A program made the position numbers and the translations under genes. Positions 36,057 through 39,160 of a stretch of 64,000 bases of DNA are shown here, piece by piece; position 1 is the first letter of the stretch, and the number at the start of each line of letters is the position of its first letter. Source of the stretch: an uncultured cyanobacterium (GTDB taxonomy: Bacteria > Cyanobacteriota > Cyanobacteriia > Cyanobacteriales > CAWCAG01); the NCBI GenBank assembly GCA_963793425.1, contig CAWCAG010000001.1, positions 320,001 through 384,000 on the forward strand, in the 5' to 3' direction. The notes beneath the pieces were generated by a model that was not told where the DNA came from, made no database searches, and saw only the letters and a program-made list of their open reading frames with translations.

Positions 36057-36125
36057 TTTCTTGACTCAAACAAAAAGTCCGTTTAAACGGACTTAACATA
36101 TTAGACAGAGAATTAATTCTCTGTC
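36046..36125. repeat. Three consecutive perfect palindromes (18, 20 and 22 bp); REP/MITE-like
   Basis: caagaaattaatttcttg 36046-36063; aagtccgtttaaacggactt 36075-36094; gacagagaattaattctctgtc 36104-36125. Confidence 0.9.
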
Positions 36126-36189: not shown

Positions 36190-38752
36190 CTAACGTCGGA
36201 ACAGAGAATAGAAAACGTGCTGCAACCAACTCAGAAAGCGGGATATTTGTTTAAGGCAGGCTTTGATAAAAATTGAGAAAGGATTATTCGGCTGCGAAAG
36301 GTTTTCAATAGCTTTATTTGCCATTTGGCTATACTCTTGATGACCTATAGCTTGAAAGAATTCTTGCGCCTTTACATAGGCTGCTTTAGCTTGGGATTTT
36401 TTGCCTAATTTAGCTAACGTATCACCATAGTTGTACCAAGAAATAGCTTCCCCACCGCGATTACCTATTTCCCTTTCTATCTCCAAAGACTGCTGCTGGA
36501 ATTCAATCGCTTGTTGGTATTGTCCTAGGGAATAGTAAGCATTGCCTAAATTGCCTAAAGAAATAGCTTCCCCACGGCGATCACCTATTTCCCTATCTAT
36601 CTCCAAAGACTGCTGATGGAAATCAATCGCTTGTTGGTATTGTCCTAGGGAATCGTAAGCATTGCCTAAACTTGCCTAAAGAAATAGCTTCCCCACCGCG
36701 ATCACCTATTTCCCTTTTTATCTCCAAAGACTGCTGATGGAAATCAATCGCTTGTTGGTATTGTCCTAGGGATTGGTAAGCATTGCCTAAATTGCCTAAA
36801 GAATTAGCTTCCCCACCGCGATCACCTATTTCCCTAGCTATCTCCAAAGACTGCTGATGGAAATCAATCGCTTGTTGGTATTGTCCTAGGGAATCGTAAG
36901 CATTGCCTAAACCGCCTAAAGAATTAGCTTCCCCACCGCGATTACCTATTTCTCTTTCTATCTCCAAAGACTGCTGATGGAAATCAATCGCTTGTTGGTA
37001 TTGTCCTAGGGAATCGTAAGCATTGCCTAAATTACCTAAAGAATTGCTTCCCCACCGCGATTACCTATTTCCCTGGCTATGTCCAAAGACTGCTGATGGA
37101 AATCTATAGCTTGTTGGTATTGTCCTAGGGATTGGTAAGCATTGCCTAAATTACCTAAAGAAATAGCTTCCCCACCGCGATTCCCTATTTCCCTGGCTAT
37201 CTCCAAAGTTGCTGATGGAAATCAATCGCTTGTTGGTATTGTCCTAGGGATTGGTAAGCATTGCCTAAATTGCCTAAAGAATTAGCTTCCCCACCGCGAT
37301 TACCTATTTCCCTGGCTATCTCCAAAGACTGCTGATGGAAATCAATCGCTTGTTGGTATTGTCCTAGGGAATCGTAAGCATTGCCTAAACTAGTCAAAGA
37401 AGCGCTCATATTGCCAATCTTGCTGACTATCTTCCGGCCAAGCTACTATTAATAGCCCATAATATTCCACTCGCACAGCAGAATAACCCCGTAAGGTAAG
37501 AAATTCATCACAGTGGCGCAAAACTTTAAAAGCAGCTTTGTATTCTTTTAACTCGAAGCGATGATAGAAAACTTCTAAATATGCTTCCACATCTGCTAAA
37601 GTTTGCCAAGGTTGAGGCTTAAACTGGTCAGAAAAATAACTAATTGCCTTTTCGATGCGCCGCAATCAGTAAACTTTCTTCGGTCTGCAAATGGAGATAT
37701 TGAGCAATTAAAGGTTGAATTGTATAGCCTGCTTCTGCTTCATTAAGGAGGGAACGATTAGCCAACTGTCGCAAAGCTTGCCGCACTGCCAGATCAGAAA
37801 TATTCTCCCCAGGCAACATGATTGCAGCATTTGCGCTATTGATAGCTACTCGATAGATACTGAGGTTAAGCAAAAATTCTCGCTGCTGGGGTGTTAGCCG
37901 TGATAGATGCTGCTGCAATAACCAAAATAGCTGCACATCTTCTTTGCCGCGATGGATTCCTGTAGCTTCTTCCCCCAAGGTGGTTAACTGCAACTTCCCA
38001 GCTTGACTAATCTTACCTTGATAATATGATCGCAAAAAGCTAGCGGCTAAACGTAAACTGAGGGGATGTCCATCTAGGCATTGCACTAAGTTAGCTTTCG
38101 CTTCTGGGGAACCGACAATACCCTCGGCGGTTAAAAACTTTGTTCCTTCTTCGGTGGAAAACCCTTTTAAAGTGGGCAACCAAGTTACAAATTCCTGCCA
38201 ACCGGGAGGCTTTTCTCTGGTGGTAACTAAGATAATGCTGTTGTTTCCTCTGGTTTGCCATTCCTGGAAAAACTGGCCATAATCGGGGTTACGCCATCCT
38301 CCCAATTCGTTTAATAAAGATTCGAGATTATCTAAAACTAAAAAGTAAGGCTGTTTGTTGAGGAAACTGAGGAAAAAGTTTCGCCTTTCTTGGGAAGTTT
38401 GGGGCAGATCCTGCGGAGTAAGTCCAGCCAGTTTAAACAGTGCTTCTTCGACAAAGAGGTCGAAACTAGGTGCAGAGGCAAAATCAACCCAAAGCTTATT
38501 AACAAACTTTTCTGTATACTCCCGGAAACAGTAGGCAGCTAATGAGGATTTACCTGCACCTCCTAAACCATGAATACCGATAAGATGATGGGAAAATGAG
38601 GAGAGATAATTTTGGAGAATTTCTAGCTCATTTTCCCGCCCTTGCCAATTGCTTAAGCGAGGTGGTTCGGAAATTAATCGGGAAGTTGGTGGGGTCTTCT
38701 GCTTCTGGGATTTTTCTACTATTTTGAGAAGATCCTGCGGCCCCGCAGTCAG
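36190..38752 (-). pseudogene. NB-ARC/STAND ATPase + TPR NLR-like reading frame; no own start codon; five single-base indels in the 3' half
   Basis: WQGRENEL, Walker A GLGGAGKS (38546-38569), Walker B LVLDNLE, VTTRE, GHPLSL, then TPRs. Indels near 37650, 37406, 37209, 37045 and 36671 (real or assembly error). Confidence 0.8.
36440..37390 (-). repeat. Eight near-identical 120-bp TPR-encoding tandem repeats
   Basis: ttgttggtattgtcctaggga recurs at about 36511, 36631, 36752, 36872, 36992, 37111, 37230 and 37350. Confidence 0.95.
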
Positions 38753-39160
38753 TCAGAAGTTAGCATCACCTTTGACTTCTTTAATTTCTACATTTTTATC
38801 TCCTAGCTGTACATTACTGTTATCCTGGGCGACAAAACGTACAGAGTTATCTTCTCGTTTGTCGTTGTAAATCTGATTATAAATAGGTCGAGCCAGATTA
38901 CTAATTTCTTCAGCAAAAGTGGAATCGCTTTCCATGGCTCCCTTTAAATAAGGTACAATCACCTCAACATTGGCAGAATTTTCTACCGTTGCGATCGCAC
39001 TTTCTGCTTCCGGGTTTCCCTGCAACTTTCCTTTAATCTTCTCCTGTAAAGTTTTTGCCTTGGCGATCGCACTTTCTGCCAGTTTACCGACTCCTAATTC
39101 CACCGCTGCACCAAAAGCAACTTCAGCAATTTTTTCTGCGGCCAAAAATTCCAATGTCAT
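38753..39160 (-). CDS. Small helical Bell/HeLo-like protein with C-terminal RHIM-like putative amyloid motif
   Basis: Hydrophobic N-terminal helix, KLQGNPEAESAI...MESDSTFAEEI helical core, N/Q/V/G-rich tail VAQDNSNVQLGDKNVEIKEVKGDANF; in frame with the downstream NB-ARC frame. Domain name is by resemblance only. Confidence 0.65.
   Translation of the reverse strand: MTLEFLAAEKIAEVAFGAAVELGVGKLAESAIAKAKTLQEKIKGKLQGNPEAESAIATVENSANVEVIVPYLKGAMESDSTFAEEISNLARPIYNQIYNDKREDNSVRFVAQDNSNVQLGDKNVEIKEVKGDANF

Follow-up and report, generated by a model that had tools for sequence, protein, structure and literature searches.

How can a receptor be made when its reading frame has no start codon of its own and opens directly behind the stop codon of another gene? 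The question is raised by a locus in a stretch of 64,000 nucleotides (nt) from an uncultured cyanobacterium (GTDB lineage Cyanobacteriales; CAWCAG01; GenBank assembly GCA_963793425.1, contig CAWCAG010000001.1, positions 320,001 to 384,000 of the forward strand). This whole stretch is called the window here, and all coordinates of the locus refer to it. On its minus strand, a short open reading frame (ORF) for a putative helical effector ends with a TGA, and the same frame continues, start-less, into a receptor of the NLR type with an NB-ARC NTPase domain and a TPR array. An initial annotation, made from the letters of the window, had proposed that termination at this TGA yields the free effector, while occasional read-through yields the receptor with the effector and its amyloid-like motif attached. 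This interpretation is supported by the comparison of related loci, and programmed read-through that yields both a free effector and an effector-NLR fusion is considered the best reading of the locus, with a probability of roughly 0.68.

The junction between effector and receptor

The junction consists of the following elements.

38756..39160, minus strand: effector ORF of 135 codons, from the ORF list (38753..39160 with its stop)
38756..38824, minus strand: C-terminal motif DNSNVQLGDKNVEIKEVKGDANF with a V-Q-L-G tetrad, similar in look to the BASS motifs of bacterial amyloid signalling
38752..38755, minus strand: in-frame stop TGA (38755-38753) with C at +4 (38752), the candidate read-through site
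38648..38752, minus strand: start-less linker of 35 codons (LTAGPQ...PPRLSN), from the stop to the W-Q-G-R motif that opens the NTPase domain
38735..38748, minus strand: inverted repeat CTGCGG-GG-CCGCAG, a hairpin 4 nt past the stop

The effector ends with DNSNVQLGDKNVEIKEVKGDANF, the last residues being ...NVQLGDKNVEIKEVKGDANF, and the TGA follows in the context TTC TGA CTG A. Behind it, the frame is open for the next 370 codons as assembled (LTAGPQDLL...WQGRENEL...GLGGAGKS...LVLDNLE). No ATG, GTG or TTG was found in the linker (38648..38752), and the earliest such codon in the receptor frame is a TTG at 38305, which is codon 149 past the stop and thus downstream of both Walker motifs. In the receptor frame, no second motif copy was found. 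On re-check, everything that the initial annotation had stated about the sequence itself holds, namely the 135-residue ORF, the TGA-C, the start-less continuation and the GC hairpin.

Where start-less receptor frames lie in related loci

A stop codon of this kind could be a lesion of a single genome or a feature of a family, and a profile of 13 effector homologues was searched in 401 sampled genomes of the same cyanobacterial order, 125 of which contain effector homologues. Among the 150 matches listed (26 more lie beyond them, and most matches weaker than about E 1e-16 are outside the analysed set), those contained in the loci L001-L160 were analysed and gave 131 unique effector frames. Exclusion of 12 fragments, of 4 frames with less than 600 nt downstream and of 22 frames that have no G-x4-GK[ST] frame nearby left 93 effector/NTPase pairs; three of those 22 that lack the strict Walker A are further same-frame stop junctions with a variant P-loop. 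The pairs were split independently of frame, by whether or not an ATG, GTG or TTG occurs at least 60 codons before Walker A, and the distance from start to Walker A is bimodal in the 93 pairs, with at most 48 codons in one group and at least 72 in the other. The classes are as follows.

Own start, 72-143 codons before Walker A: 34 pairs; effector stop TAG 16, TAA 13, TGA 5; base at +4 T 12, G 9, A 7, C 6; receptor frame relative to the effector 0 in 14, -1 in 14, +1 in 6
No early start, same frame abutting the stop (stop type): 46 pairs; TGA 38, TAG 8, TAA 0; C at +4 in 43/46; frame 0 in all
No early start, -1 frame, overlap of 13-73 nt: 12 pairs; TAA 12; base at +4 T 4, C 4, G 2, A 2
No early start, other (L087): 1 pair; TGA; C at +4; frame +1, apparently broken

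The 34 own-start pairs correspond to the published two-gene form, as their receptors open with their own copy of the effector's C-terminal motif. With the start-less NTPase frames the picture is a different one: 58 of the 59 either abut the effector frame (46, frame 0) or overlap with it (12, frame -1), and the single other one, L087, has a stop context identical to that of the same-frame class. To judge from their sequences, these 58 frames are placed in a way that only recoding would explain. In 25 of the 46 stop-type pairs, the first ATG, GTG or TTG is found at most 14 codons before Walker A or behind it, and in 10 of them it is behind. Almost half of all pairs (46/93) thus share the junction of the focal locus, and both the conserved in-frame stop and the intact start-less NLR frames for which the initial annotation had suggested a search across cyanobacteria are found in this class. 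Orthologues with a sense codon in place of the stop, which had been named there as the sign of a private nonsense mutation, were not encountered: no sense-codon fusion of the effector to an NTPase was found among the 131 frames, the longest effector open frame being 220 amino acids, and a search for longer homologous proteins did not find a fused form either, which by itself is weak evidence. By this comparison, the focal stop is not a private lesion.

Sister loci appear to reach the same fusion by another route, a -1 frameshift at X_XXA_AAG. A phased X_XXY_YYZ heptamer is present in 11 of the 12 pairs of the -1 class (A_AAA_AAG in 7, G_GGA_AAG in 3, C_CCA_AAG in 1), positioned 0-4 codons before the effector stop, and a start codon was not found in the overlaps of this class. 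The single-sequence folds past the heptamers are heterogeneous, from 0 to -21 kcal/mol, and do not establish a conserved stimulator.

It could be argued that the receptor is made separately, either by re-initiation right after termination or from a non-canonical start such as the CTG, ATA and ATT of the focal linker, with the hairpin holding the ribosome. A CTG indeed lies directly past the stop in 25 of the 46 loci, and Bell and NLR genes are often at most 10 bp apart or overlapping, for which polycistronic expression has been proposed (Dyrka et al. 2020, 10.1101/2020.01.06.895854; cited here and below for its main text). In the other 21 loci, however, the codon past the stop is CTA, CCC, CCG, CCA, CTC, CTT, CAG, AAG, GCG or ATA. 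Separate initiation also needs neither a shared frame nor a stop-free interval, yet all but one of the start-less frames are contiguous with the effector frame, whereas the own-start pairs have no frame preference (14/14/6). The -1 class likewise speaks against it, as its slippery heptamers are in phase and its overlaps lack a start codon. Independent initiation of the NLR, which the initial annotation had itself listed as an outcome contrary to its proposal, is thus not what the placement of the start-less frames suggests, and it is regarded as improbable.

Selection on the nucleotides and on the frame behind the stop

If the stop is to be read through, its surroundings may be expected to differ from those of an ordinary stop, and they do. 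TAA, the stop of 13/34 own-start effectors, terminates 0/46 stop-type effectors, and C at +4 is found in 43/46 stop-type loci vs 6/34 own-start loci; this choice of stop and of the +4 base fits the documented weak termination in bacteria. Behind the stop, the bias extends to synonymous positions: in the 37 loci in which the first codon encodes Leu, it is CTN in 37/37, compared to 39% in the same ORFs (TTA/TTG 61%), and in the 28 loci with Ser or Pro at the third codon, it is NCG in 27/28, compared to a background of 14%. Because of the CTN codons for Leu at the first and the NCG codons for Ser/Pro at the third position, selection acts, as far as can be read from the alignments, on the nucleotides at the stop and not on the protein alone. 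The peptide at the stop is conserved as well, as can be seen in L056, L066 and L101 (...P-P-x-x-stop-L-x-[SP]-P..., followed by a Pro-rich linker), and the junction may also form a defined flexible linker in the fusion.

That the frame behind the stop is translated is suggested by its coding constraint. The ratio of nonsynonymous to synonymous differences per site (pN/pS) was determined in close pairs for the stretch from the stop to the earliest start codon in either sequence. In frame 0, it is below 1 in 22 of the 25 computable pairs and below 0.5 in 17, and the pairs form about seven groups and are not independent; in the other two frames, it is mostly at least 1. The start-less stretch past the stop is, on this pattern of substitutions, under coding constraint.

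The third component is the hairpin. RNAalifold predicts a family hairpin 8 nt past the stop from 32 aligned junctions, with compensatory changes in 3 of its 4 pairs; one pair of helix columns, for example, is GC in 10, UA in 8 and CG in 7 sequences. In the 5-bp version, 83.8% of the cells pair, compared to 71.1 +/- 1.9 in shuffles and 20-52% in slid controls, and the covariation score is 0.416 compared to 0.233 in shuffles; neither value is reached by any of 500 shuffles (0/500 each). The conserved downstream hairpin that the initial annotation had made a touchstone of its proposal therefore exists at the level of the family, in these 32 relatives and with covariation.

A hairpin shortly past a UGA resembles the bacterial SECIS (selenocysteine insertion sequence) element, and it could be asked whether the stop is decoded by dedicated machinery, as selenocysteine with a SECIS-like hairpin, as pyrrolysine, or by a suppressor tRNA. 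The window's own genome, G000, encodes 50 tRNAs according to ARAGORN, and no suppressor tRNA (anticodon UCA, CUA or UUA), tRNA-Sec or tRNA-Pyl was found among them; its sole Lys tRNA has the anticodon UUU. Moreover, 8/46 loci use TAG, and as TAG and TGA loci share the downstream context and the hairpin, selenocysteine is excluded as a general explanation. Dedicated decoding machinery is thus extremely unlikely.

Spread and interchange of the junction types

Stop-type junctions are spread over 40 genomes from 23 genera in 13 families and form about 30 clusters at 70% identity; -1 junctions are spread over 8 genomes from 7 genera in 5 families. In a tree built for the NTPase domain (85 rows, quick search, SH-aLRT as the only measure of support), loci of the three junction types are mixed with one another. 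Its well-supported branches require no fewer than 13 changes for the stop type, and the corresponding minima are 6 for the -1 type and 12 for the own-start type. The NTPase of L071, which has its own start and its own motif next to a matching effector, is nearly identical to those of L074, L075 and L077, which are of the stop type and have a different effector tail. From the sequences of these four loci of one genus, this looks like an exchange of cassettes, and the near-identity implies that the same receptor body can be served by either N-terminal solution. The junctions are also not bound to one kind of receptor: the stop junction precedes NB-ARC-TPR and nSTAND1-WD40 receptors, and the -1 junction precedes NB-ARC, nSTAND1 and NACHT receptors.

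Other homologues in the window's genome and beyond show further arrangements. L006 (G000:C1:14300-18301) in the window's own genome is a canonical pair of a 129-residue effector ending with ...DMYVINNPTGNLRLGG and a 661-residue NB-ARC receptor that begins with MSQRNESHIGDLYVINNPEGEL at its own ATG, in the same frame and with two stops between the two. The third effector homologue of this genome, L002/L051 (G000:C9:339195-342590), has 188-190 residues with a hydrophobic C-terminal extension, and no NTPase frame was found within 1.4 kb downstream of it. In a genome of the same genus, L027 (G001:C4:279841-283005) comprises only a frameshifted effector remnant, 87% identical over residues 1-55, and no receptor, which means that the presence of the locus varies between close species. 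In L088 (G388:C478:3500-6200), the effector domain shares one open frame, which has no NTPase, with a putative membrane segment and a long array of WD40 repeats; this locus was considered as a guide to the residue inserted at the stop and proved uninformative in this respect.

Integrity of the focal receptor

The receptor itself is composed as follows, with its stop codon at 36190-36192 on the minus strand.

38030..38635, minus strand: NB-ARC NTPase domain (Pfam NB-ARC E 4.3e-08, AAA_16 E 2.1e-09)
38546-38569, minus strand: Walker A GLGGAGKS, within the NB-ARC domain
36190..38029, minus strand: remainder of the receptor, a winged-helix/linker region and the TPR array (three-frame translation; Pfam TPR families)
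36438-37389, minus strand: TPR array, a tandem repeat with 7.9 copies of a 120-nt unit
36075..36094, minus strand: terminator-like hairpin with T-run, about 95 nt past the receptor stop (consensus scan)

PADLOC gave no match for the NTPase part. The consensus scan found no terminator-like site between effector and receptor on the minus strand; it found 3 such sites, compared to 3.8 +/- 2.4 in shuffles, and is weak alone.

As assembled, the receptor contains five single-base indels that shift its frame. They lie near 37649-37655, 37405-37407, 37207, 37043-37044 and 36674, three of them inside or beside the TPR repeat and two in unique sequence. This had led to the caveat in the initial annotation that the copy could simply be decaying. 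The locus is also present as Logan contigs in four public sediment-metagenome runs of one study (X1-X4), no RNA run being among the runs listed for it, and these contigs contradict all five indels of the window: at 37207, contigs of 4/4 runs have an inserted T at full depth, at 37405-37407 and at 37649/37655, a base is deleted in run contigs at full depth, at 36674, a base is deleted in X2, and at 37043/37044, a base is inserted in X4. The TGA, on the other hand, is retained, as an X2 contig (38673-38896) reproduces this region with 0 differences and an X1 contig (38673-39247) has a single difference, at 39116; these two contigs are the source for the retention, the difference lists of X3 and X4 being silent on the TGA. 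When the five indels were applied by script, the result was 135 codons, the TGA, 853 open codons and the stop at 36190, so that the TGA is the only interruption retained by the reads. Some contigs may be misplaced within the TPR repeat, which leaves the two indels in unique sequence unaffected. As the run contigs do not have any of the five, the frameshifts of the window are most likely consensus errors of the metagenome-assembled genome or strain differences, and the focal copy is probably intact. This largely disposes of the concern that the copy is decaying, and the support of reads for the TGA, on which the proposal had been made to depend, is provided by the public contigs. The genome is a metagenome assembly of 9 contigs, and further apparent frameshifts in it may likewise be consensus errors.

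These data also bear on the idea that the focal locus is a dead remnant, in which a deletion took away the receptor's start and motif copy and left the frame intact by chance, so that no receptor is made. In favour of this, it is in two-gene pairs that the focal motif type is otherwise found, the receptor has five frameshifts in the window, G001 of the same genus has a frameshifted effector piece without receptor, and six related loci look decayed. However, with the five frameshifts absent from the public contigs, 853 codons are open past the stop, the focal TGA-C is the context of the family (43/46 stop-type vs 6/34 own-start loci), and in-frame fusion by chance cannot account for 46 loci spread over 40 genomes, 23 genera and 13 families. 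A dead remnant is therefore considered unlikely.

The effector and its C-terminal motif

The initial annotation had called the effector Bell-like and its motif RHIM-like, and neither label was confirmed by a profile or a fold match. An AlphaFold2 model based on 69 sequences has a mean pLDDT (predicted local distance difference test score) of 73.9, with a five-helix N-terminal domain at residues 8-104 that is mostly above 80 (helices 8-21, 29-45, 50-62, 69-78 and 80-104) and a disordered C-terminal tail (residues 103-135 below 50). The protein begins with MTLEFLAAEKIAEVAF, where relatives have sequences of the ME-P-[LIV] type, and its first acidic residue is number 4, where many relatives have theirs at positions 2-3. 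It thereby shares with Bell/BASS effectors a length of about 120-140 residues, a helical structure, a hydrophobic N-terminal helix and an N-terminal acidic residue. Size, helices and context thus fit the Bell-like label; a profile or fold match was not obtained. Pfam and PADLOC gave no family for the focal effector, a Pfam scan of 69 family members gave 0 meaningful matches, a profile search in the PDB gave nothing below E 0.13, and Foldseek found no specific fold relative in the PDB, its top match being at E 0.76. With VIA-align (wide), the top Z was 5.5, and the CC domain of ZAR1 had a Z of 4.7, level with unrelated helical bundles. Such models do not allow the fold to be called either Bell/HeLo/CC-type or new. 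The HetE-N domain (PF20701), which had come up for 24% of one neighbouring protein cluster, was dropped, as hmmscan detected it in none of the 69 members at E <= 0.01.

As to the motif, the V-Q-L-G tetrad is present and fits the RHIM/BASS3 core, [IV]-Q-[IVL]-G; Pfam RHIM was not detected in the focal protein at E <= 0.1. The motif type, ...S-T-[VLF]-K-[QM]-V-G-[KS]-I-x-A-[DE]-x-V-[NS]-F-stop, is shared with five relatives (L016, L071, L069, L045 and L084), in which the adjoining receptor begins at an ATG of its own and repeats the motif. Because of its size, its N-terminal helix, its genomic context and this motif type that is duplicated in five relatives, the focal effector looks like a Bell/BASS effector.

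How the junction may work

Taken together, the locus would be one transcription unit that is read in two ways. Most ribosomes would stop at the UGA-C and release the free 135-residue helical protein with its C-terminal amyloid-type motif, which would be a cell-death effector of the Bell/BASS kind. Some would read the UGA by a near-cognate tRNA and continue for 853 codons, resulting in a protein composed of effector, motif, linker, NB-ARC and TPR. As the receptor has no start codon of its own, read-through would be the sole route to it and would set the ratio of receptor to effector. The receptor would carry the effector's own motif at its N-terminal side, in replacement of the second copy of the two-gene systems. 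Once a ligand has caused the receptors to oligomerise, their tethered motifs would seed the amyloid fold, and the surplus of free effector would be converted and then act on the membrane; such a nucleation by the activated receptor and conversion of the free pool is suggested by analogy with Bab/Agp (10.1101/2024.11.07.622273, likewise cited here and below for its main text). Read-through itself and its rate are inferred here, and so are templating of the amyloid and any function in defence or cell death.

A second way to understand the same anatomy is that recoding is real and only keeps an all-in-one effector-NLR at a very low and safe level, with the free 135-residue product as a by-product or inhibitor and without any templating. 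The anatomy expected for this is identical, and all-in-one NLRs with N-terminal Bell-type domains are known from the literature (10.1101/2020.01.06.895854). On the other hand, stop-type effectors retain the motif types of the two-gene pairs, as is evident from ...TNYIGGTHTHNHQT-stop in L056 vs ...NTNYFGGTHNHGK-stop with a receptor copy in L138/L144, and the fact that a motif is kept between the effector domain and the NTPase suggests that it is used. A recoding that serves such a restriction alone is thus rather unlikely.

Several points weigh against programmed read-through with free effector and fusion as its products. The fusion product is a prediction from the comparison of loci, and the membership of the effector in the Bell family is putative. 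Three near-identical pairs have a pN/pS above 1, with few substitutions, and the P-values of the codon bias are overstated, as the loci are related (about 30 clusters at 70% identity). Some stop-type loci have a start 25-48 codons before Walker A, such as L010/L011 with an ATG at +21, and independent initiation may take place at such loci. L087, L079, L116, L096, L132 and L147 keep the TGA-CTR context and have a receptor frame that is shifted or missing; they are probably decayed copies of a stop-type junction, so that in some lineages the arrangement does break down. All runs in which the focal receptor is repaired belong to one study, and the sample from which the window was assembled may be among them. 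The focal hairpin, for which RNAfold predicts a 5-bp stem and a 4-nt loop, is no better than shuffles (z 0.26; 117/200 shuffles fold equally or better), its spacer is 4 nt compared to 8 in the family, and it did not align with the family helix; the weight of the focal hairpin comes only from the comparison within the family.

Beyond the focal locus, the loci on balance suggest that cyanobacteria have a dedicated and conserved cellular read-through cassette. It would consist of UGA or UAG followed by C, an 8-nt spacer in which CUR-NNN-YCG is conserved, and a hairpin, and it would be interchangeable with -1 frameshifting at X_XXA_AAG. From one mRNA, it would give rise to a free effector of the pore-forming type and to the same effector tethered to a STAND/NLR receptor, whereby recoding would replace the second copy of the motif and fix the ratio of the two.

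If this is true, it would be the first immune receptor built by recoding, and these loci would be one of the rare chromosomal gene families of bacteria with programmed read-through. Cyanobacterial genomes would then contain a large class of NLR-like genes that are mis-annotated as truncated, start-less or pseudogenes beside small 'hypothetical' genes. Conserved read-through signals are so far mainly known from viruses and eukaryotes, and a signal with defined context and hairpin would be added for bacterial chromosomal genes. The junction would also be a third solution that links the all-in-one and the two-gene amyloid architectures of NLR systems, with translation setting the ratio of sensor to executioner, which matters for any immune pathway that amplifies signals and is potentially suicidal. 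As the junction is short and portable, it would be directly testable with reporters.

Comparison with known systems

The closest known systems are the Bell/BASS pairs of filamentous bacteria, multicellular cyanobacteria among them (Dyrka et al. 2020, 10.1101/2020.01.06.895854), in which, like at the focal locus, a helical protein of about 120-140 residues with a short C-terminal motif is encoded directly upstream of a collinear NB-ARC/NACHT receptor with TPR or WD repeats. This collinear receptor is found at the focal locus, too. In the published pairs, the motif is repeated on a separately initiated receptor, which is also the case in 34 relatives, whereas the focal locus and 45 others have neither a receptor start nor a second copy and instead have a leaky in-frame stop with a hairpin. 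As the search for pairs in that study demanded the motif on both proteins, the start-less stop-type form would have gone uncounted in it.

A functional precedent for the proposed output is Bab/Agp of E. coli ECOR25, where the effector is Bell-related, has the amyloid motif BASS11 at its C-terminus and is converted by a receptor with the same motif; the system was shown to defend against phage T5 by abortive infection (10.1101/2024.11.07.622273). Unlike what is proposed for the focal locus, no recoding is involved in Bab/Agp, and a sequence or fold match of the focal effector to this system was not obtained.

Recoding has, as it seems, not been brought together with such genes. The words frameshift, readthrough, read-through and stop codon are absent from the main texts of 10.1101/2020.01.06.895854 and 10.1101/2024.11.07.622273, supplements aside, and a literature search (readthrough with Bell domain; recoding with NLR, STAND, NACHT or cyanobacteria) found no paper that links recoding to Bell/NLR genes. 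A frameshift catalogue and the first 300,000 characters of the recoding review PMC5009743 contain neither NB-ARC nor NACHT; gammaretrovirus read-through and dnaX frameshifting are both mentioned in PMC5009743. The two known modes of recoding can nevertheless be compared with the two classes of start-less receptors found here.

In dnaX and in insertion sequences of the IS3 family, -1 programmed frameshifts take place at A_AAA_AAG, and a tRNA-Lys(UUU) as the only Lys tRNA is the condition that makes AAG shifty in E. coli, which is matched by the window's genome. The 12 sister loci of the -1 class, in which members of the effector family are joined to start-less receptors and of which 11 have X_XXA_AAG, resemble these cases; the mode does not apply to the focal locus, which uses frame 0. 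The focal locus can be compared with viral read-through, as in retroviral gag-pol and in the coat/A1 gene of phage Q-beta, where one mRNA is translated into much of a short product and, in a set proportion, little of a fusion that is extended at its C-terminus. The signal of the gag-pol type is a leaky UAG or UGA, to which the retrovirus adds a structure that begins about 8 nt further on. These are viral genes, whereas the focal junction belongs to cellular, immune-type genes of bacteria, occurs in 13 families, and has a simple hairpin in place of a pseudoknot.

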